Made by a program: the position numbers and the translations under genes. Shown in pieces: positions 1-5,698 of a stretch of DNA of 5,698 nucleotides (position 1 is the first letter of the stretch; each line of letters opens with the position of its first letter). Origin of the DNA: a virus (Duplodnaviria > Heunggongvirae > Uroviricota > Caudoviricetes); the IMG/VR virus record IMGVR_UViG_2778261176_000002, positions 1 through 5,698 of that record, one strand, 5' to 3'. The notes beneath the pieces were generated by a model, which did no database searches, was not told the origin of the DNA, and saw only the letters and a list, made by a program, of their open reading frames with translations.

Positions 1-745
1 TCTCGCGCGGATTTGCAGGACTGGTGATGTTCTTGCCGAACATGCAGCCTTTCGCCGTCAGCGACCAGAATTTTTTGATGTTGTTAATCGCGGTACGGCT
101 GTATCGTTCGCGCTGCTCGACGATCCCCAGCTTCACCATCTGGTGATATGCCTGATTAGCCGTAAGGCGGATACCATACTGTTTCAGCAGTGCACTCAGC
201 GACAGCGTAGGGCGACTTGAGCCATCAGGCGCGTCAGCAGGAGCATCAATGGCATAGCGCGGTGCCAGATTCGGTAAGCCAACAGCCTCCTGGAGTTTCT
301 GACAGGCACCAAGCACTGAAGAGTTAGACAGGTTTAATTCCCGGCGCATAAAGTCCAGCAGAATCACACCAGCCTGCATCTTGTCAGCAGCCTGCCCGGA
401 TAATTTTTCCGGTGCGCTGGTTACCATATCGAAAGTACGGATCACCTTCAGATGGAATGCCGGGCTGATCCACATTGTATAGGCATACACCAGTTCCTTG
501 CAGACATACGTTCCCCGTTCATTTCCCCCATGAATCACACTCACCGGGTCAACACCCAAATTCTGGGTGTTGGTCAATTCATGAACAAGCTCAACAGTTT
601 GTTGGCTGGAAAGAAACTTTCCTGGCTCCTTGGTTCTGGCATTTGCACCAGATGCTACTGCTGCGCGATGCAGATCGTTCAGGCTGTAACGCCCATAAGC
701 ATCACGACGAACTTCAATACCATCAATGACCATCAGATTATTCAT
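1..745 (-). CDS. KilA-N domain protein (antirepressor/Bro-like); partial, C-terminus lies beyond the left window edge
   Basis: Hand-translated minus-strand frame starting at ATG 745-743 (MNNLMVIDGIEVRRDAYGRYSLNDLHRAAVASGANARTKEPGKFLSSQQTVELVHELT...GTYVCKELVYAYTMWISPAFHLKVIRTFD...) is open to position 1. The N-terminal ~110 aa fit the KilA-N DNA-binding domain pattern. A GAGGAG Shine-Dalgarno lies 8 nt upstream of the ATG. Not in the ORF track because the frame has no stop inside the window. Confidence 0.7.
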   Translation of the reverse strand, partial: MNNLMVIDGIEVRRDAYGRYSLNDLHRAAVASGANARTKEPGKFLSSQQTVELVHELTNTQNLGVDPVSVIHGGNERGTYVCKELVYAYTMWISPAFHLKVIRTFDMVTSAPEKLSGQAADKMQAGVILLDFMRRELNLSNSSVLGACQKLQEAVGLPNLAPRYAIDAPADAPDGSSRPTLSLSALLKQYGIRLTANQAYHQMVKLGIVEQRERYSRTAINNIKKFWSLTAKGCMFGKNITSPANPRE

Positions 746-764
746 ACTTCGTTTCTCCTCTTAA

Positions 765-1154
765 TCAGGCGGCTGCACCCGCCGTTTTCTCGTACTTACT
801 GATAGTGATCTCGACCTTCCCTTCCGGGATAACCGGTCCCCACTCCACCAGCATTCTTTTCACCTGACTGTCGTCTTCCCACACACCCGCGTGGGTCAGG
901 GCGTCAAACAGCGCCTTGTTATAGTTGTCCAGATCGCGGATCCGGTTATCCGGAGGAAACAACACGATCTCCACTGAAGCAGGTGCCGACGTTGGTTTTG
1001 GCAGACGACGTAACTGCTCAACTATTGCTGCACACGCCGCGCTCTGGAATTTGCGCCCCGCCGCGCTTATCAGGCTCTTACCAGCAAACGCCCCTTTGTT
1101 GGGGTGTCGCCAGTACGTGTTCACGCTGGGCGGGAAAGGCAGGATCAGCTTCAT
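765..1154 (-). CDS. rusA: RusA-family Holliday junction resolvase (crossover junction endodeoxyribonuclease)
   Basis: 129 aa ORF MKLILPFPPSVNTYWRH...RIRDLDNYNKALFDALTHAGVWEDDSQV... shows the N-terminal PxxNxxYR-like motif and the acidic RDLDN / DAL..AG.W.DD core typical of RusA. AGGGAGA Shine-Dalgarno upstream. Its ATG (1154-1152) overlaps a TGA at 1153-1151. Confidence 0.85.
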   Translation of the reverse strand: MKLILPFPPSVNTYWRHPNKGAFAGKSLISAAGRKFQSAACAAIVEQLRRLPKPTSAPASVEIVLFPPDNRIRDLDNYNKALFDALTHAGVWEDDSQVKRMLVEWGPVIPEGKVEITISKYEKTAGAAA

Positions 1155-1222
1155 GCCACCATCTCCCTGACCAGTTTTTCTGCCTGCTGGCGAACCTGCG
1201 CCAGAAAGGCCTCACCACATGC

Positions 1223-1804
1223 CTAAAGTTCATCGCGCCCGATGTAGCTGATTGCCGGTCCCTTCCAAGTCTTGTCAAAAACAGCAATAGCACCAGCGAA
1301 GAAAGCGCCTGTCGGCACCTGCTTCTCATCTTTCGGGATAAACCAGGCAGGCAGTTCAAAACCAATACGCCCGCGAATAAAAGCAATATGATCTGCATCT
1401 TCCGGCCACCACACTTCGCTGGTGGCAGCTTTGATCAGGAAAACATAGCGCCCGCCCTTATCACGCATGGCACTGGCATGCTTCATGATGTAACGCATGC
1501 CGGTGATGTATTGCCCCTCATGCTGACTGGCGCGACTGTATGGTGGATTGCCAAAGGCAGCACCTTTAAGCTCCGCAAGGCGTTCTGACCAGTCACGCGC
1601 CAGCGCGTTGTCTTCCGCCGTGTAATACGCGGCACATTTGGCATTATCACCGTCAGTGAACAGATCCAGAACAAATGGGCCAAACAAGGTGTTAATTCCC
1701 CAGAAAATGCTGTCCGGCGTGCGCCACTGATCGCCCACCTCCTTCAGTTCATGGGATGGTTTGTTCCGCAGCTCCACCAGCGCCTGACAATATTTATTAC
1801 TCAT
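1223..1804 (-). CDS. Phage Dam-type DNA N6-adenine methyltransferase
   Basis: Same frame as track ORF 1223..1849, but started at ATG 1804 (MSNKYCQALVELRNK...) rather than the upstream GTG. Contains the N6-adenine MTase motif IV NPPY (AFGNPPYS). Ends at TAG 1225-1223. A GGGGGC Shine-Dalgarno-like stretch precedes the ATG. Confidence 0.8.
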   Translation of the reverse strand: MSNKYCQALVELRNKPSHELKEVGDQWRTPDSIFWGINTLFGPFVLDLFTDGDNAKCAAYYTAEDNALARDWSERLAELKGAAFGNPPYSRASQHEGQYITGMRYIMKHASAMRDKGGRYVFLIKAATSEVWWPEDADHIAFIRGRIGFELPAWFIPKDEKQVPTGAFFAGAIAVFDKTWKGPAISYIGRDEL

Positions 1805-1896
1805 TAAGCCCCCACGTAAAAAGCATCCGCAATGTCTCCGGAAGTACACCCCGGATGGGCTTCAATGAATTTCTGAACTTCATTCAAAAGACTCAT
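1804..1896 (-). CDS. Hypothetical 30-aa mini-protein (MSLLNEVQKFIEAHPGCTSGDIADAFYVGA)
   Basis: ATG at 1896-1894 lies 2 nt after the initiator stop (TGA 1901-1899) and is preceded by AGGGGGTGA with 5-nt spacing. Its TAA stop (1806-1804) overlaps the methyltransferase ATG as TAATG. Too short for the ORF track; coding status is inferred from coupling and the RBS only. Confidence 0.35.
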   Translation of the reverse strand: MSLLNEVQKFIEAHPGCTSGDIADAFYVGA

Positions 1897-1898
1897 GA

Positions 1899-2840
1899 TC
1901 ACCCCCTGAATCCTGCCGGGATCTGGCTGTAGTCCACGTTGTCGTAACTGGCTTTGAAGTACGGATCTTCGCGTTTTTCTGTGTACGTGCTGACGGACGG
2001 CGATAAGCGCAGGGAAAGCTCATCCCATTTTTCCCGCAGCTTCGACGGGCTGAGCACGTTACGGCACCAGAACGGATCGCGGCTGACGCGGCTGTACATC
2101 TCGCAGATTTGTTTGTGAGTACGACCATCCTGCACACACATCAGGCGAATTTCGTTTGCCCAGGCTGTCCAGTTCGGTTCTTTGGGACGAACCACCTCGC
2201 CGTCACATTCGGCAGCCTGCTCGTACAGGGCGATGATTTTTTTCCAGAGCCACTGTGCGCAGGTCAAATCATCCTGCGTTCCCCACTGGCGCTTTTTAGG
2301 GCTGAATACAACCGCATCAGGATGGCGAGTTAAAAAATCCTGTTCAGCCTTCTGCGTGTCCGGTTGCGAAGCGCCCGGACGAGAAGGTTTTTTATCTGAC
2401 GGATCATGTTTTGATTTTACTGACGGATCCCCGCCAGATTCTGACGGGTGAAAACCCGCTTTTTTGCCAGATTTCGACGCATCAAATTTTGACGGGTCAG
2501 ATTTTGATGCGTCAGATTTTGACGGGTCAGAATCTGACAGTTGAGAAAATGCCGCTGCCTGAAGCTTCGCAACGTTAAGCTGATAAACATTCGACGCATT
2601 GCGGTTACCCTGGCGACGCGCCTTACGCGTTAACCAGCCTTCTGCTTCCAGCCGTGCGATAGCCGTTCTGACGGTACTCATCCCCGCGCCAATCTGGCGG
2701 GCAATGGTTTCAATTGATGGCCAGCACACACCTTCGTCATTACTGAAATCAGCCAGGCGGGCCATAATTGCTACGCTGGATAATTTCATGCCTGACGCTG
2801 CGCAACCATCCCATACATAGCCGGTTAATTTAGTGCTCAT
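1899..2840 (-). CDS. Phage replication initiation protein (lambda O-like role): N-terminal winged-HTH, low-complexity linker, DnaT/primosome-like C-terminal domain
   Basis: 313 aa ORF. N-terminus [13 protein letters not shown]...SIETIARQIGAGMSTVRTAIARLEAEGWL reads as a wHTH. The central linker (SDSDPSKSDASKSDPSKFDASKSG...) is encoded by an iteron-like repeat array. GAGG Shine-Dalgarno 6 nt upstream of ATG 2840. Confidence 0.8.
   Translation of the reverse strand: MSTKLTGYVWDGCAASGMKLSSVAIMARLADFSNDEGVCWPSIETIARQIGAGMSTVRTAIARLEAEGWLTRKARRQGNRNASNVYQLNVAKLQAAAFSQLSDSDPSKSDASKSDPSKFDASKSGKKAGFHPSESGGDPSVKSKHDPSDKKPSRPGASQPDTQKAEQDFLTRHPDAVVFSPKKRQWGTQDDLTCAQWLWKKIIALYEQAAECDGEVVRPKEPNWTAWANEIRLMCVQDGRTHKQICEMYSRVSRDPFWCRNVLSPSKLREKWDELSLRLSPSVSTYTEKREDPYFKASYDNVDYSQIPAGFRG
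2394..2540. repeat. Iteron-like direct repeat array inside the initiator gene; putative phage origin of replication
   Basis: About eight copies of a TGACGG(G/A)TCA-type motif at ~15-16 bp periodicity. The best units are three tandem 15-mers ATTTTGA(C/T)G(G/C)GTCAG at 2486-2530, plus ATTTCGACGCATCAA at 2471-2485 and degenerate copies at 2394-2456. The core TCTGAC-GG-GTCAGA is itself a dyad. Placement inside the initiator linker mirrors ori-lambda inside gene O. Confidence 0.6.
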
Positions 2841-3009
2841 GACCGACCTCTATTTCCCTGAATTTACGACGAAACTGTTCGAGCGGACTGAAGCACTCAT
2901 GCTCATAGCCTTCGCGGAGGTAGATAACCCGTTGTGTTTCCGGCTCCCAACGAATGACTCTGACGGGCACTCCGTAGTGATCTTTGAACCAGCGGTTAAC
3001 TTGTTGCAA
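2830..3009 (-). CDS. Hypothetical small protein (59 aa, TTG start): (M)[58 protein letters not shown]
   Basis: Found by hand-translating the minus strand in the frame offset from track ORF 2850..3188. Strongly protein-like sequence. AAGGAG Shine-Dalgarno at 3023-3018 sits 8 nt upstream of TTG 3009-3007. TAA stop at 2832-2830 overlaps the initiator start by 11 nt. No ATG in this frame downstream of the TGA at 3039-3037. Confidence 0.4.
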
Positions 3010-3188
3010 AGGACTGTCTCCTTCTGCCGGTTGAAATCACCCACAGCCCACTCTGCAAAGCTGTGGGTTACAATTTCCCTGTCACCTGGTACATTCACTG
3101 CATAGCAATACTCCACCTTCGCTTTTCCACCCGGCACAGGAAGCGCAATCAGTTGCGAGCGACGGTAGTGTGTTGTTAAACTGTTCAT
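2850..3188 (-). CDS. Hypothetical protein in the frame coupled to the cII-like gene; likely genuine only in its N-terminal part (about 3188 to 3040)
   Basis: ATG 3188-3186 overlaps the cII-like stop as ATGA; GGAGAA lies ~10 nt upstream. The N-terminal ~50 aa ([52 protein letters not shown]) look protein-like. The C-terminal part (…[24 protein letters not shown]) looks like an out-of-frame read of feature 2830-3009. Confidence 0.3.
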
Positions 3189-3826
3189 GCGTTAGTTTCT
3201 CCACAACCAGAAGCAATCGACGCCACGACGCCCGGAGCTGCACACTCGCGGGCGTTACTCTTTTCCGGCGCACAAAAAACACGAAATAACAGTGTTAAAT
3301 GCTCCTGCCACTTCGCCATTACTTGGTAGCTGTTCTCTTCGATTTGCTCACGCTCAGCCTGATCAATAACTCCATCAGCAGTTGCCTTACGTAAGTACTG
3401 GGAATGCTTGCCAATCCATTCTATTGACTCCATCAGCCGCTGATTAATGTCACCATTGTCAATGTCATCAATGACCACCAGCGGCACAAACACCCCATTA
3501 CTACGACGGGCTATTGCATCCGTTACATGCCTGGTACCACTGGCATCCTGTAAAACCATGGCCCACTCGAGTGGAAAAATTTGATCCCCACCGCTACGCA
3601 GTCTGTTATGCAATTGATCTTTTGCTGGGGTGATATCATCAGATTTATACAAACCAAGAATTTCTGCTGCTTCCTCATAGCCATGAGGTAAATCAGCAAT
3701 CGTTCTTCGTATTGCTGCCACCAGCCATGCTGGCTGTTTATCAACTTTCCATTCAGGTTCTTTACCCACGTTTAAGTCCTCATATCTGTGGTTTCTGTAA
3801 ATCGATTTATCCATTAGATTTTTCAT
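3185..3826 (-). CDS. cII-like lysogeny-establishment regulator (possibly Phage_CP76 / cII-type family)
   Basis: Same frame as track ORF 3185..3883, started at ATG 3826 ([13 protein letters not shown]...); ATG 3814 is an alternative. Sits immediately after the cro-like gene, overlapping its stop, which is the cII position in lambdoid phages. The central segment [24 protein letters not shown] resembles, from memory, the conserved F-P-E-W-L-D block of CP76-type CII proteins; this was not verified by search. No good Shine-Dalgarno, so start may depend on coupling to cro. Confidence 0.55.
3190..3266 (+). ncRNA. Putative oop-like antisense RNA covering the 3' end of the cII-like gene
   Basis: Candidate sigma70 promoter on the + strand: TTGCGA (3153-3158), 18-nt spacer, TAAACT (3177-3182). 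The predicted start is near the cII-like stop and a + strand intrinsic terminator lies at 3228-3266, giving a ~75-nt transcript antisense to the last ~80 nt of the cII-like gene. This matches the lambda pO/oop arrangement. Hexamers are weak (4/6 each). Confidence 0.3.
3228..3266 (+). terminator. Rho-independent terminator-like hairpin with U-rich tail on the + strand (antisense, inside the cII-like coding region)
   Basis: Stem ACGCCCG+GAG (3228-3237) pairs with CTC+G+CGGGCGT (3245-3255) with one bulge; 7-nt loop; followed by TACTCTTTTCC. The reverse complement on the minus strand has no U tract, so the element is + strand specific. Confidence 0.4.
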
Positions 3827-4007
3827 AAAGCTCAGGTTTAAATGGCAACCGTCCGCAAGTTCTATATGCAGCCTCTGCTGCACGTCCTTTTGGAATTAAC
3901 TGGCCAGGACGGTTTCGCCACTGATAAACGGCTTCAGTTGTTATGCCGAAAAAAGCAGCAACTTTCTCAATGCTGCCGAAGTAGCTTTCGATATCGTCAG
4001 TCGTCAT
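3807..4007 (-). CDS. cro: Cro-like HTH repressor (YdaS/Cro family)
   Basis: 66 aa ORF divergent from cI. HTH segment SIEKVAAFFGITTEAVYQWRNRPGQLIPKGRAAEAAYRTCG matches the Cro/YdaS-type pattern. GGAGGG Shine-Dalgarno 4 nt upstream of ATG 4007-4005. Confidence 0.8.
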   Translation of the reverse strand: MTTDDIESYFGSIEKVAAFFGITTEAVYQWRNRPGQLIPKGRAAEAAYRTCGRLPFKPELYEKSNG

Positions 4008-4018
4008 ATGCCCTCCAA

Positions 4019-4035
4019 ACTAAGTTTTGTTAGAT
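4019..4035. promoter_or_regulatory. Operator-like dyad ACTAAGTTTTGTTAGAT (CTAA-N7-TTAG)
   Basis: 17-mer differing at only 2 positions from the site at 4797-4813 on the other side of cI. Overlaps the -10/+1 region of the candidate cro promoter. Confidence 0.5.
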
Positions 4036-4067
4036 CTTAATTATCAATCTATCTTAGGTCAATAAAA

Positions 4068-4083
4068 ACTAAGATTACTTAGT
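4068..4083. promoter_or_regulatory. Operator-like dyad ACTAAGATTACTTAGT
   Basis: Perfect 6-bp inverted arms ACTAAG / CTTAGT around a 4-bp centre; same CTAA-N7-TTAG geometry as the other sites. Lies just upstream of the candidate pR -35. Confidence 0.5.
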
Positions 4084-4104
4084 AATTAAAGAAATGGTGC
4101 TCCT

Positions 4105-4731
4105 ATGGAAACAGTTGGTCAGCGTATAAAAGCTCTGAGAAGGGTTACCAGAACGTCCCAGAAAGAATTGGGTAAATTTTGTGGAGTAAGTGACGTTGCT
4201 GTGGGGTACTGGGAGAAAGACATCAATGTCCCTGGTGGGGAAGCACTTTCAAAATTAGCGAAGTTCTTCAATACGTCAATAGATTACATTCTTTATGGTG
4301 CTGAGTTTGAAGGCAAACTCGTCACAAACATGCGCAGAGTTCCTGTAATCTCGTGGGTGCAGGCTGGGCAGTTTACTGAGTGCAGGACAGCAGAAGTGTT
4401 TAGTGAAGTAGACAAGTGGGTAGATACATCATTAAAGATTGGTGATAACTCATTTGCATTGGAGGTTAAAGGCGACTCCATGACTAACCCTAATGGCCTC
4501 CCAACAATACCAGAAGGCGCAACAGTGATTGTAGATCCTGATGCAGAACCCCGGCATGGAAAAATAGTCATCGCTAGACTTGATGGAACAAACGAAGCCA
4601 CAGTAAAAAAATTAGTTATCGATGGCCCTCAAAAGTTTTTAGTGCCATTAAATCCCCGGTACCCCAACATCCCGATCAATGGTAATTGCCTCATCATTGG
4701 TGTAGTCAAAGGAGTTCAATACGAACTCTAG
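4105..4731 (+). CDS. cI: CI-type prophage repressor: N-terminal XRE-family HTH, C-terminal S24 (LexA-like) autopeptidase domain
   Basis: 208 aa. HTH: TSQKELGKFCGVSDVAVGYWEK. Ala-Gly cleavage-site context VQAGQF. Ser nucleophile in KGDSMTNP and general-base Lys in ATVKKLV, all spaced as in LexA / lambda CI. Divergent from the cro-like gene. Confidence 0.9.
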   Translation: METVGQRIKALRRVTRTSQKELGKFCGVSDVAVGYWEKDINVPGGEALSKLAKFFNTSIDYILYGAEFEGKLVTNMRRVPVISWVQAGQFTECRTAEVFSEVDKWVDTSLKIGDNSFALEVKGDSMTNPNGLPTIPEGATVIVDPDAEPRHGKIVIARLDGTNEATVKKLVIDGPQKFLVPLNPRYPNIPINGNCLIIGVVKGVQYEL

Positions 4732-4751
4732 CTCCCCCTTTTCTCTAACCA

Positions 4752-4781
4752 AAACACCGAACTAAGAAAAGTTTGGTGTTT
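4752..4781. repeat. Inverted repeat AAACACCGAACT-aagaaa-AGTTTGGTGTTT immediately downstream of cI
   Basis: 12-bp arms with one G/T mismatch (G-U in RNA) and a 6-nt loop, 21 nt after the cI stop. Contains a CTAAG half-site. AT-rich stem and poor U-tract make it an atypical terminator; it could equally be a protein-binding dyad. Confidence 0.4.
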
Positions 4782-4785
4782 CCTC

Positions 4786-4814
4786 TTGCTATTAAAACTA
4801 AGTTAAGTTAGATT
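4786..4814 (+). promoter_or_regulatory. pL-like early promoter candidate: -35 TTGCTA, 17-bp spacer, -10 TAGATT
   Basis: Hexamers at 4786-4791 and 4809-4814 on the + strand, pointing into the gene at 4920. The spacer and -10 are overlapped by the operator-like 17-mer at 4797-4813. Confidence 0.4.
4797..4813. promoter_or_regulatory. Operator-like dyad ACTAAGTTAAGTTAGAT (oL analogue)
   Basis: 15 of 17 positions identical to the site at 4019-4035. Located downstream of cI where the lambda-type map places oL/pL. Confidence 0.5.
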
Positions 4815-4919
4815 TTATATCAAAGATAACGAACAGGCAGGACGCCCACGAAGTAGCCCGCCCGGTACGTACGAAGACCGGGATGATTCGTTAGCGGATG
4901 ATTTCAGTGGAGAGAATAG

Positions 4920-5228
4920 ATGAATGAGCAGGATTTGAAGCATGTGATCGCATTGTTGCTGGAAGACGCTAAACGTTTACAGCAGATAGAGCCAAATGCA
5001 GGCACTGAGGCCCGTATTTTGTTAGCAAAACAGGCATTAAAGACTTGCGGGGCGCAAGACCCTGATCGAACCAAGTTCATGAATTTCATGGCTAACACGA
5101 TCACCCCCCTGCCATGCAATGGAGAGAGGGTGAGCCGTGTTTATCACGACACAATGGTTAAGGCATTAAGAATCGAGCTTGATGGGCTTAGGCGTAAGAT
5201 CGTGATGAACAAAATCGTTGCCAACTAA
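4920..5228 (+). CDS. Hypothetical protein, first gene downstream of the pL-like region
   Basis: 102 aa ORF (MNEQDLKHVIALLLEDAKRLQQIEPNAGTEARILLAKQALK...VKALRIELDGLRRKIVMNKIVAN) with GGAGAG Shine-Dalgarno 5 nt upstream of the ATG. Predicted largely helical. No recognisable family and no arginine-rich N-terminus, so it does not look like lambda N. Confidence 0.6.
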   Translation: MNEQDLKHVIALLLEDAKRLQQIEPNAGTEARILLAKQALKTCGAQDPDRTKFMNFMANTITPLPCNGERVSRVYHDTMVKALRIELDGLRRKIVMNKIVAN

Positions 5229-5507
5229 GGAAGCAGACGGAAGTAAGCATGCGCTTTGTTCAAATTTGCAGACAAATATATTTGCGTCAACACCAGCACT
5301 GTTAGCAATGGAAAAAGTTTGATCAAGGATTTGTTGGCAGTTCATTGTGCTTTTGAGGATATATCCCTCTGGAATCAGTCTGCAGCAGCTATCGTCAGAC
5401 TCTTTGATTGTTTTCTGGTACAGAAAGTTAAGCATTAATTCTTCAAATTTTTTGGTCTGTTCGGCTGTTGCTTCAAACAGACGAACGTGAACATAAAACT
5501 GGTTCAT
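5166..5507 (-). CDS. Hypothetical protein, convergent with and overlapping the 3' end of the 4920-5228 gene
   Basis: Same frame as track ORF 5166..5543, started at ATG 5507 (MNQFYVHVRLFEATAEQTKKFEELMLNFLYQ...) because AAGGAA lies 6 nt upstream; ATG 5543 has only a poorly spaced GGTGG. Codon usage looks E. coli-like (CGT, CTG, GAA, CAG, AAA). No recognisable family. Confidence 0.5.
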   Translation of the reverse strand: MNQFYVHVRLFEATAEQTKKFEELMLNFLYQKTIKESDDSCCRLIPEGYILKSTMNCQQILDQTFSIANSAGVDANIFVCKFEQSACLLPSASLVGNDFVHHDLTPKPIKLDS

Positions 5508-5698
5508 TAGGTTTCCTTGCTGGCTGTGTGAGAACTCCAGCATACCACCGAGCCTGAAGTGGTGAAAAGACAGGCAATAGTTTCATTGCTGTGTGTAGTC
5601 TTGGCGCTACCAGCTTGTACCCTTGCTTCCGGCTGGTACCGTCCTTTTTACAAAACAGAGAAGAGCATCACCGGACGACGGGCTCATAACCCAATCCA

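Follow-up and report, generated by a model that had tools for sequence, protein, structure and literature searches.

In the phages lambda and 434, the origin of replication lies inside the gene for the initiator itself, its repeats occupying the part of gene O that encodes a linker between the DNA-binding N-terminus and the C-terminal domain; four sites of 18 bp are found there, with starts 20, 24 and 23 bp apart. Further lambdoid examples are phi80 gene 15 and P22 gene 18. At the plasmid origins of P1, F, R6K and pPS10, a winged-helix Rep protein binds repeated sites beside an A/T-rich region; the iterons of such plasmids are usually direct repeats of 17–22 bp that lie outside rep and have DnaA boxes close by, and GATC sites occur in or near the opening region of both P1 oriR and oriC.

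Among lambdoid phages, a set of replication modules encodes an O-type protein only, with no helicase or loader; a survey counted these in 34 of 314 phages, or about one in nine of those of the Enterobacterales, and LLS too has such a module (PMC12315714). The same 2025 survey states that O-only replication is not understood, describes no origin for it, and names mEp460_4F5 as a relative of LLS (PMC12315714). The GenBank record of LLS has cos, attP and frameshift sites annotated and no origin, and the genome paper for SfIV mentions a replication module and no origin. Replication regions of the HTH_36 type are listed as uncharacterised in Stx phages (PMC8951638). An HTH_36 N-terminus is also found, together with a DnaT C-terminal motif, in DopC, the product of a domesticated chromosomal gene accompanied by a lambda-P-like DopE (PMC5509034); its authors found no iterons in DopC (Brezellec et al. 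2017, PMC5509034).

The locus described here lies in a 5,698-nt stretch of viral DNA (IMG/VR record IMGVR_UViG_2778261176_000002, positions 1–5,698; ‘the window’), for which mEp460_4F5 is the best phage match at 97% identity. We propose that the segment from about 2331 to 2546 would serve as the replication origin of a lambdoid prophage, placed like ori-lambda within the initiator gene itself, in the part that codes for the linker; judging from sequence, we put the probability of this reading at roughly 0.7.

The gene in question (1899–2840, minus strand; 313 amino acids) was assigned from its ORF call together with Pfam, phrog_391, BLASTP and the layout of an AlphaFold model, and its description as an initiator in the first-pass annotation is borne out: the protein matches phrog_391 (‘replication initiation O-like’) with an E-value of 2e-135, and its residues 70–277 align with residues 78–270 of phage 434/lambda O (BLASTP, E 3e-27; 30% identity, 214 aligned columns). 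Reading from its N-terminus, the protein begins with an HTH_36 winged helix and continues through a repetitive linker, for which disorder is predicted, into a lambda-O-like C-terminal domain followed by a DnaT-like tail. The first of these, a winged helix-turn-helix domain (codons 1–98; 2547–2840, minus strand), is modelled by AlphaFold as helices plus a beta-hairpin ‘wing’ at pLDDT 63–86, with MarR/ArsR/TFE-type winged helices as its best fold matches in the PDB; Pfam returns HTH_36 for this region (E 4e-11), alongside GntR and PaaX-type models for the protein, and misses Phage_rep_O (PF04492), the family that 434 O matches at an E-value of 6e-36. Nor is there a Pfam match to a Rep_3-type plasmid initiator, with RP-C falling below threshold (17.2 bits against a cutoff of 24.4 bits). 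We presume the winged helix to be the iteron-binding domain. The linker (residues 102–160) is modelled at pLDDT <50, after which values reach 82–94 in the C-terminal domain (codons 161–283; 1992–2360, minus strand), whose homology to the C-terminal domain of lambda O is drawn from tblastn, BLASTP and AlphaFold; against the O-type genes of lambda, 434 and phi80 it shows 34.7% identity, with an E-value of order 1e-18 (4e-18 by tblastn). A PDB sequence search with the initiator gave weak MarR-type matches to the winged helix only, with neither the C-terminal domain nor the tail matched.

At the core of the proposed origin is a tandem block (2473–2546) of five 14-bp palindromes of the form TYTGA-N4-TCARA, found by repeat, inverted-repeat and motif searches, which start at 2473, 2488, 2503, 2518 and 2533 at an exact 15-bp pitch; the central three are perfect and the outer two have one mismatch each. 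Towards lower coordinates, three degenerate or half iterons can be read from the sequence (2395–2408, 2419–2432 and 2440–2453), along with a lone TTTGA half-site at 2410–2414. The first-pass annotation had claimed about eight copies of a motif here, and the array is indeed present beyond chance expectation: allowing up to two mismatches, TGACGGGTCA matches 12 times in the window against 3.85 expected, a number reached in none of 200 shuffles, with starts at 2397, 2421 and 2442 (the degenerate sites, each with 1–2 mismatches), and at 2490, 2505 and 2520; with weaker copies at 2475 and 2535, the number of copies comes to eight. The three near-perfect tandem 15-mers reported at 2486–2530 run in the order TTTTGACGGGTCAGA, TTTTGATGCGTCAGA, TTTTGACGGGTCAGA, the first and third being identical and the second differing at two positions, and the dyad symmetry ascribed to the core is real, as seen in the inverted repeats I1–I9 and in the occurrence of TYTGANNNNTCARA at 2488, 2503 and 2518. 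Tandem Repeats Finder describes the interval 2468–2531 both as 4.3 copies of a 15-bp period (81% matches) and as 2.1 copies of a 30-bp period (88%).

Two details need amending. The spacing originally given as 15–16 bp holds, at 15 bp, for the five copies of 2473–2546, but along the array as a whole the starts are 24, 21, 33, 15, 15, 15 and 15 bp apart, with none at 16; and the boundaries of 2394–2540 were drawn too narrowly, the constrained DNA continuing for about 60 bp further (codons 101–170; 2331–2540). In protein terms, the array (2395–2546) corresponds to residues 99–149, within or adjoining the low-confidence linker, and codes for the repetitive part of the initiator as had been claimed, the minus-strand ORF of 1899–2840 giving the peptide SDSDPSKSDASKSDPSKFDASK. 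An antisense terminator-like hairpin at 2445–2458 is not conserved in the relatives that we inspected by eye, and is for this reason left out of our model.

Constraint on the DNA was measured with a set of 47 non-redundant homologues from many genera, collected by an alignment-based scan of genome contigs; a scan of viral contigs with the single protein returned only loci that were 98–99% identical, useless for tests of divergence. The lambda-type O sequences available are, within each specificity type, too alike for the synonymous-site method. Most of what the plasmid collection offers are prophages, sitting in records that are large or of chromosome size. One 16-kb circular record (NZ_CP148542.1), which looks as if a related prophage had been excerpted in the manner of lambda-dv, was set aside, its O-like gene being frameshifted in the record and hence excluded as evidence.

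In a profile of synonymous-codon identity over 20 diverse full-length homologues, codons 101–170 stand at 0.66–0.86, against mostly 0.30–0.46 (and at most 0.59) for the other 10-codon blocks of the initiator gene; it is this profile that delimits the whole nucleotide-constrained element of ~215 bp that we propose as the origin (2331–2546), and the constraint coincides with the segment of the protein predicted to be disordered. Across the 47 homologues, conserved residues have a top-codon fraction of 0.52 in codons 1–97 and of 0.90 in codons 101–161 (Mann-Whitney p=1.4e-16), with columns at or above 0.9 numbering 1 of 73 in the former and 27 of 41 in the latter; identical residues show a third-base identity of 0.43 in the winged-helix part, where synonymous sites are saturated, and of 0.84 in the linker. 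Rare codons are fixed in the linker (TCA 46/46, TCT 40/40, GTA 46/46, TGT 33/33), and the codons lying over the degenerate iterons of 2395–2453 are near-invariant (GAT 47/47, CCG 45/47, TCA 40/40, GTA 46/46). The nucleotides are kept even where the residue is replaced, S becoming F, C, Y or P as TTT, TGT, TAT or CCT and K becoming E or N as GAA or AAT; the central codon of each repeat unit varies freely. Expressed as a matrix of 198 units from the 47 homologues, the coding strand reads TCA RAW TYT GAC SCR.

On this comparative sequence evidence, the codon pattern is the footprint of an array of binding sites; a segment that was young or had been transferred recently would not give it. The first-pass annotation had set against an origin the case of homologues that share the linker peptide repeats and no conserved DNA motif; what we see is DNA conserved much more strongly than the peptide. 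Because disorder is predicted for the linker, the protein would tolerate the SDxSK repeats; taking the observed codon pattern together with the predicted disorder, these are the iterons seen in translation. It is the conservation of the DNA repeats far beyond the needs of the protein that makes an origin very probable. The converse view, that the array is a slippage-prone, low-complexity SDxSK linker whose DNA has no role of its own, or is held constant by an overlapping gene, we judge to be highly improbable: copy number does change in multiples of five codons, and in the window two ORFs in other frames (55 and 60 aa) run across the array, but synonymous sites are near-frozen where amino acids change, in a linker predicted to be disordered. 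As to an overlapping gene, stops occur in four of the five alternative frames in all 47 homologues and in the fifth frame in 29 of the 47, and the seven homologues inspected show no conserved start or end in any alternative frame; we therefore reject this idea.

The half-site of the palindrome goes with the type of N-terminal domain: group A proteins are found with TYTGAC (62/62), group B with RTTGAS (6/7) and group C with TYTGAA (4/4), the repeat unit of this last group being the perfect palindrome TCTGAACGTTCAGA. Since N-terminal type and half-site are adjacent and co-inherited, the association could partly reflect linkage. N-terminus and array recombine as one unit onto C-terminal domains that are either lambda-O-like or Phg_2220_C, the module joint falling just after the array. 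A variation in repeat number against a conserved protein, which had been suggested as a point of comparison, is seen among the homologues, with lengths of 274–323 aa among near-identical alleles, 313 aa being the commonest by far. As a point against the origin reading, the tandem block is absent from rare natural alleles (P0017, 282 aa, and P0015, 287 aa), which may belong to defective prophages.

The joint directly after the array, together with the invariance of two GATC sites (see below) and an mRNA strand that folds better than shuffles (z = -4.5), might instead speak for a cis element of another kind: a homology patch for modular exchange, a site for some other protein (IHF, or SeqA/Dam acting at the GATC pair), or a fold in the mRNA that controls translation of the initiator. 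We regard such an element as an unlikely explanation. A recombination patch needs neither palindromes of 15-bp periodicity with free centres nor half-sites specific to each group, the RNA fold is ill-defined (MFE structure frequency 0.006, with a very different centroid), and its z-score is uninformative because tandem palindromes fold well whatever their function. Scanning against Rfam gave nothing at threshold: the one hit, to a eukaryotic miRNA hairpin, scored 30.7 bits where the gathering cutoff is 97, and is put down to chance.

Adjoining the iterons on their C-terminal side is an A/T-rich stretch of 33 bp (2388–2420; 27% GC, A-rich on the coding strand), located by a GC scan and a list of GATC sites, which contains the lowest 30-nt GC in the initiator gene (0.27 at 2390–2419). 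The stretch is short, is broken by a GATC/half-iteron, and is less extreme than that of lambda. One invariant Dam site lies inside it (GATC 2402–2405) and a second just past its high end (GATC 2426–2429); the D codon at both DPS motifs is GAT in 47/47 homologues, as against GAC in ~83% of the tandem units. This A/T-rich, GATC-bearing segment is common to all three N-terminal groups and, by analogy, is a candidate for the place of unwinding or of host-factor binding. A point against an origin is that DnaA boxes show no enrichment (TTWTNCACA with up to one mismatch, 10 matches against 11.5 expected); none falls within the array.

The modest character of the A/T-rich stretch bears on a further reading, in which the palindromes are real initiator sites with a regulatory role (autorepression, an intragenic roadblock, copy-number control or handcuffing) and the strands open elsewhere; dyad symmetry, DNA conservation and the association with N-terminal type all show the character of a binding site rather than the firing of an origin. 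We nevertheless consider a purely regulatory array improbable. In the complete genomes of two viable phages, SfIV and LLS, the 14-bp motif is confined to the array (3/3 matches in each), leaving no second motif cluster anywhere in either to act as origin; the array takes exactly the position that ori-lambda has, and the protein encoded there has a C-terminal domain of the lambda-O type; and the conserved A/T-rich GATC segment, shared by every specificity group, lies next to the sites.

The extreme C-terminus of the initiator, SQIPAGFRG (1902–1928, minus strand), resembles the end of E. coli DnaT, SQIPPGFRG, with 8 of 9 residues identical, and the tail of one homologue (P0021) matches DnaT at 14 of 20 positions (E 9e-8); the DnaT sequence used for comparison was confirmed against NCBIfam NF002770 (349.6 bits, positions 1–179 of 179). 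Directly downstream in the window there is no P gene, the initiator being followed in order by a PerC-like remnant of 30 aa, Dam and RusA; the SfIV and LLS genomes have no annotated helicase, loader or primase. Relatives with tails of a non-GFRG type carry a neighbouring Phage_lambda_P, such that tail and P are anticorrelated. A 2026 paper on the structure of the preprimosome gives no role for the extreme C-terminus of DnaT.

These elements could be assembled into a working scheme for the proposed origin. Inactivation of cI would allow rightward transcription from a pR-like promoter through cro, a cII-like gene and the initiator; a sigma-70 promoter-like site between cI and cro (4034–4062, minus strand; TTGACC-17-TAAGAT, 9/12), picked out by sequence match and gene order, is by analogy presumed to be this pR-type promoter, serving cro, the cII-like gene and, further on, the initiator gene with its array. 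Dimers of the N-terminal winged helix would then bind the TYTGA-N4-TCARA sites, five at 15-bp pitch and three weaker, as suggested by the dyad symmetry of the sites, their conservation as DNA and the way in which half-site follows N-terminal type. A pitch of 15 bp (~1.4 helical turns) places neighbours on nearly opposite faces of the DNA, so that a wrapped, lambda-like O-some is not guaranteed. In the weakest step, drawn by analogy, the nucleoprotein complex would destabilise the neighbouring A/T-rich GATC segment (2388–2420). Lastly, and speculatively, the lambda-O-like C-terminal domain and DnaT-like tail might recruit host DnaB-DnaC directly, a suggestion prompted by the missing P gene and supported by the anticorrelation of tail and P.

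Taken as a whole, we offer as a tentative possibility that the array and its GATC-flanked A/T-rich segment are the origin in a lambdoid replicon of a class of its own, one needing no phage helicase loader, in which a winged-helix initiator would act on palindromes at 15-bp pitch, with a geometry unlike that of the lambda O-some, and a tail mimicking DnaT would recruit host DnaB-DnaC. If true, the DnaT-like tail would functionally replace the O-P interaction, and this would explain how O-only phages replicate. With a probable origin, the 14-bp palindrome recognised in it, its three specificity groups and a tail that is a candidate for helicase recruitment, the gap in O-only replication becomes open to simple experiments. 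For annotators, these features supply an origin signature applicable to thousands of prophages in E. coli, Shigella, Salmonella and Klebsiella, serotype-converting and some toxin-converting phages among them, and the locus provides a clean example of a protein linker with its sequence dictated by an overlapping DNA element.

Set against ori-lambda, the array aligns with O residues ~110–160, the part in which the 434 record annotates its four gpO sites; the ori-lambda-like placement foreseen in the first-pass annotation, with repeats in the inter-domain linker, is what we find, and its other sequence-level predictions that lend themselves to checking are likewise borne out, apart from the spacing and boundaries amended above. 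The two share dyad-symmetric repeats, an A-rich (coding strand) segment on the C-terminal side and a homologous C-terminal domain, and in both the type of repeat goes with the type of N-terminus and the C-terminal half is exchangeable. They differ in geometry, with 14-bp palindromes at 15-bp pitch in place of the 18-bp sites of lambda and 434, whose phasing of about two turns (20–24 bp) is not matched here. Of the O-only phages, LLS encodes a protein (gp44) that shares the group-A N-terminus, the SDxSK/TYTGAC array and the GFRG tail, but its C-terminal domain is Phg_2220_C where that of the window is lambda-O-like. With iteron plasmids, the locus has in common repeats, a winged-helix protein and an A/T-rich region, its sites however being palindromic and intragenic; with DopC, the protein shares HTH_36 and a DnaT-like extreme C-terminus, but iterons are present here and P is absent. 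The concept is lambda's own; new, in comparison with lambda, are an HTH_36 N-terminus, a 15-bp pitch, two invariant GATC sites, a module with no P gene, and a tail resembling that of DnaT.

The window comes from a lambdoid prophage (SfII/SfIV/mEp460/cdtI type), of which it covers the immunity and early-right region; its closest phage matches show 96–98% identity across 38–80% of its length. A cI-type repressor (S24/HTH_3; 4105–4731, +) and a P22-type Cro (3807–4007, −) border an interval holding a sigma-70-like promoter (4062–4034); then come a CII/CP76-like activator (3185–3883, −), two small ORFs (2850–3188 and 2830–3009, both −), a 313-aa ‘replication initiation O-like’ protein, here the initiator (1899–2840, −; phrog_391, E 2e-135; Pfam HTH_36, E 4e-11), Dam (1223–1849, −) and RusA (765–1154, −). 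The small ORFs overlap by 160 nt in different frames, both with family support (DUF4222, E 6e-19; phrog_1170, E 8e-70), and public records differ on which is annotated; either the PHROG family has been fed by inconsistent annotation, or one ORF is related to the other by a frameshift. Directly after the initiator, a 30-aa ORF (1807–1896, −; MSLLNEVQKFIEAHPGCTSGDIADAFYVGA*) resembles the first ~26 residues of a PerC/YfdN-like gene, which occupies this position at 161–164 aa in three relatives (L082, L083, L162), and stops abruptly at the Dam start; recombination within a mosaic seems to have truncated the gene at this joint. Dam and RusA are separated by only 68 nt (1155–1222), where mEp460_4F5 carries a 327-bp LexA_DNA_bind-type gene, which suggests either a deletion in the window or a different mosaic arrangement at this point.

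Within the initiator gene, Tandem Repeats Finder reports at 2468–2531 a period of 15 bp (4.3 copies) and also one of 30 bp (2.1 copies); with up to two mismatches allowed, TGACGGGTCA has 12 matches in the window as a whole, where 3.85 would be expected, a count reached in none of 200 shuffles. Three copies are perfect 14-bp palindromes of the form TYTGA-N4-TCARA (starting at 2488, 2503 and 2518), with one-mismatch copies at 2473 and 2533; these five keep a pitch of exactly 15 bp, whilst three degenerate or half copies, at 2395, 2419 and 2440, are spaced by 24, 21 and 33 bp. The first-pass annotation, which had flagged 2394–2540 as a probable origin, was thus right on four points: there are eight copies, three of the 15-mers are near-perfect, the core is palindromic and the array encodes SDPSK/SDASK repeats; its ‘15–16 bp spacing’ holds for five copies, at 15 bp, and fails for the other three. 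Between the tandem and degenerate copies, and antisense to the gene, sits an intrinsic-terminator-like hairpin (2445–2458, +; CGGGTGAAAACCCG then CTTTTTTG, the T-run extending to 2465); it is not preserved in the homologues inspected by eye and is therefore probably incidental.

A scan at one genome per species gave 80 loci, in Escherichia, Pantoea, Providencia, Yersinia, Rahnella, Tatumella, Edwardsiella and other genera. Codon alignment of 47 non-redundant genes sharing the N-terminus type shows that synonymous choice is close to random in the winged-helix domain (mean top-codon fraction 0.52; 1 of 73 columns at or above 0.9) and almost fixed in the linker (0.90; 27 of 41 columns; Mann–Whitney p=1.4e-16), bearing out the expectation that the DNA motif, and not the peptide alone, is conserved. 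At identical residues, third-base identity is 0.43 in the winged helix versus 0.84 in the linker, where rare codons are invariant (TCA 46/46, TCT 40/40, GTA 46/46, TGT 33/33). Where Ser is replaced by Phe, Cys, Tyr or Pro (TTT, TGT, TAT, CCT), or Lys by Glu or Asn (GAA, AAT), the nucleotides are kept despite the amino-acid change. Alternative readings were weighed here (ALTERNATIVES): the synonymous-site data exclude a pure protein-linker explanation; four of the five other frames are interrupted by stops in every homologue and no conserved start or end was seen in the seven homologues inspected, which makes an overlapping gene unlikely; and there is no support for a defined RNA structure. Across 198 units the coding-strand consensus is TCA RAW TYT GAC SCR, the central ‘variable codon’ carrying least information; invariant arms about a free centre exclude a segment that is merely young or recently transferred, and on sequence grounds look like the pattern of a protein-binding palindrome.

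When 20 diverse homologues are compared along the entire gene, synonymous-codon identity amounts to 0.66–0.86 at codons 101–170 (window 2331–2540) and mostly to 0.30–0.46, nowhere exceeding 0.59, in the remaining 10-codon blocks. In our AlphaFold2 model, built with a 30-sequence alignment, residues 1–98 form a winged helix-turn-helix (pLDDT 63–86), residues 102–160 fall below 50, residues 161–283 form a confident helical domain (mostly 82–94; 67 at 211–220) and the C-terminal tail is of low confidence; the gene's most constrained DNA thus encodes its least structured peptide. The top PDB fold matches are winged helices of the MarR/ArsR/TFE type. The C-terminal part shares homology with the lambda/434 O C-terminal domain and phi80 gp15 (tblastn 35% identity, E ~1e-18), residues 70–277 aligning with O residues 78–270 (BLASTP, E 3e-27), whereas the N-terminus is not lambda-type, matching HTH_36 where 434 O matches PF04492. 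The 434 record annotates four gpO sites at O codons ~117–145, in a linker positionally equivalent to the one holding our repeats.

Homologues carry three N-terminal domain types, and the half-site differs between them: TYTGAC in all 62 genes of group A (recognition helix STVRTAI), RTTGAS in six of the seven of group B (TTVSAAI or STVKSAI), and TYTGAA in all four of group C (STVIxxI). The group C unit is a perfect palindrome, TCTGAACGTTCAGA, and the change between A and C half-sites is symmetric, affecting both arms. Some half-sites in Providencia arrays read TCTGTY in place of TCTGAC. At many loci similarity to the query is confined to residues 1 to ~161, N-terminus and array being joined, right after the array, to a Phg_2220_C C-terminal domain; the same modular logic has long been described for lambdoid O genes. 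Since the N-terminus adjoins the array, linkage may be part of the cause of the association. Some of the conservation may be due to modular recombination or to another DNA-binding factor.

Common to all three groups, and lying 3′ of the tandem units on the coding strand, is the segment GGG GAT CCG TCA GTA AAn TCA AAA CAn GAT CCR TCA GAT AAA AAA CCT TCT (shorter in group B). Asp is GAT at both DPS motifs in 47 of 47 genes, giving two GATC sites (window 2402–2405 and 2426–2429); in the tandem units it is GAC in ~83%. At 2388–2420, in the position of lambda's A/T-rich region, lies the gene's lowest GC (27%), A-rich on the coding strand; this short stretch would be the best candidate for an unwinding or host-factor part. 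The prophage's own Dam gene lies two genes downstream of the GATC-bearing element. SfIV has the same origin-like element and no methylase gene (PMC3851460), which makes a link between phage Dam and origin control optional at most.

In the complete SfIV genome, whose initiator is 98.7% identical to ours, TYTGANNNNTCARA occurs three times, all within the array; in the coliphage LLS, which forms plaques and shares the N-terminal module, there are likewise three occurrences, all within gene 44. Taken with the synonymous-site data, the linker position and the half-site types, this motif uniqueness supports well the earlier proposal that the array is a replication origin, a reading to which we give a probability of about 0.7. 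Alternatively, the initiator may bind these sites for regulation, with opening elsewhere. Against an origin, the A/T-rich stretch is modest, the 15-bp pitch departs from that of lambda, rare alleles lack the tandem block and DnaA boxes are not enriched. In neither SfIV nor LLS is a helicase, loader or primase annotated, and the carefully annotated LLS record, with cos, attP and frameshift sites marked, has no origin. O-only modules occur in 34 of 314 lambdoid phages, their replication being ‘not yet understood’ (PMC12315714, the LLS paper), HTH_36 replication regions are likewise uncharacterised in the Stx-phage ‘Eru’ survey (PMC8951638), and we came across no account of this origin in the literature searched.

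At its C-terminus the initiator reads SQIPAGFRG (1902–1928, −), matching SQIPPGFRG, the final nine residues of E. coli DnaT (sequence checked against NCBIfam), at eight of nine positions; the tail of a homologous protein, P0021, matches DnaT at 14 of 20 (E 9e-8). Where tails resemble HWNSPEAWENTL or TDWIDGIENDL, a Phage_lambda_P gene follows (4/4 tested); GFRG-tailed relatives have no downstream lambda-P, the next gene being PerC-like, Dam or another, and in two cases a DnaC/IstB-like ATPase (relevant loci: L154, L162–L166, L169, L170). Both kinds of C-terminal domain can bear the GFRG tail. It may replace the O–P contact in helicase recruitment. Domesticated DopC had already been described as combining HTH_36 with DnaT-C (PMC5509034), and a 2026 preprimosome paper makes no statement of what the DnaT tail binds. 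A third tail type, ...W[NA]xIW[KQ]..AQR... (L092–L101 from Providencia/Proteus, L118, L134, L135, L142 and others), has neither GFRG motif nor downstream lambda-P gene in the cases inspected. L169 (NZ_CP148542.1), a circular 16-kb entry submitted as a plasmid, consists of a related lambdoid prophage's early region, from cI to lysis; its O-like gene, of group B, is frameshifted as recorded, and it also encodes a DnaC-like ATPase. This entry may represent either a natural replicon of the lambda-dv kind or an artefact of assembly.

The origin concept is the classical lambda one. The variant differs in its DNA-binding family, its 14-bp palindromes at 15-bp pitch, its invariant GATC pairs, the absence of a P gene and the presence of a DnaT-like tail; with these differences, and in a class of replicon that has expressly been called not understood, the array is a useful lead despite the familiar concept.
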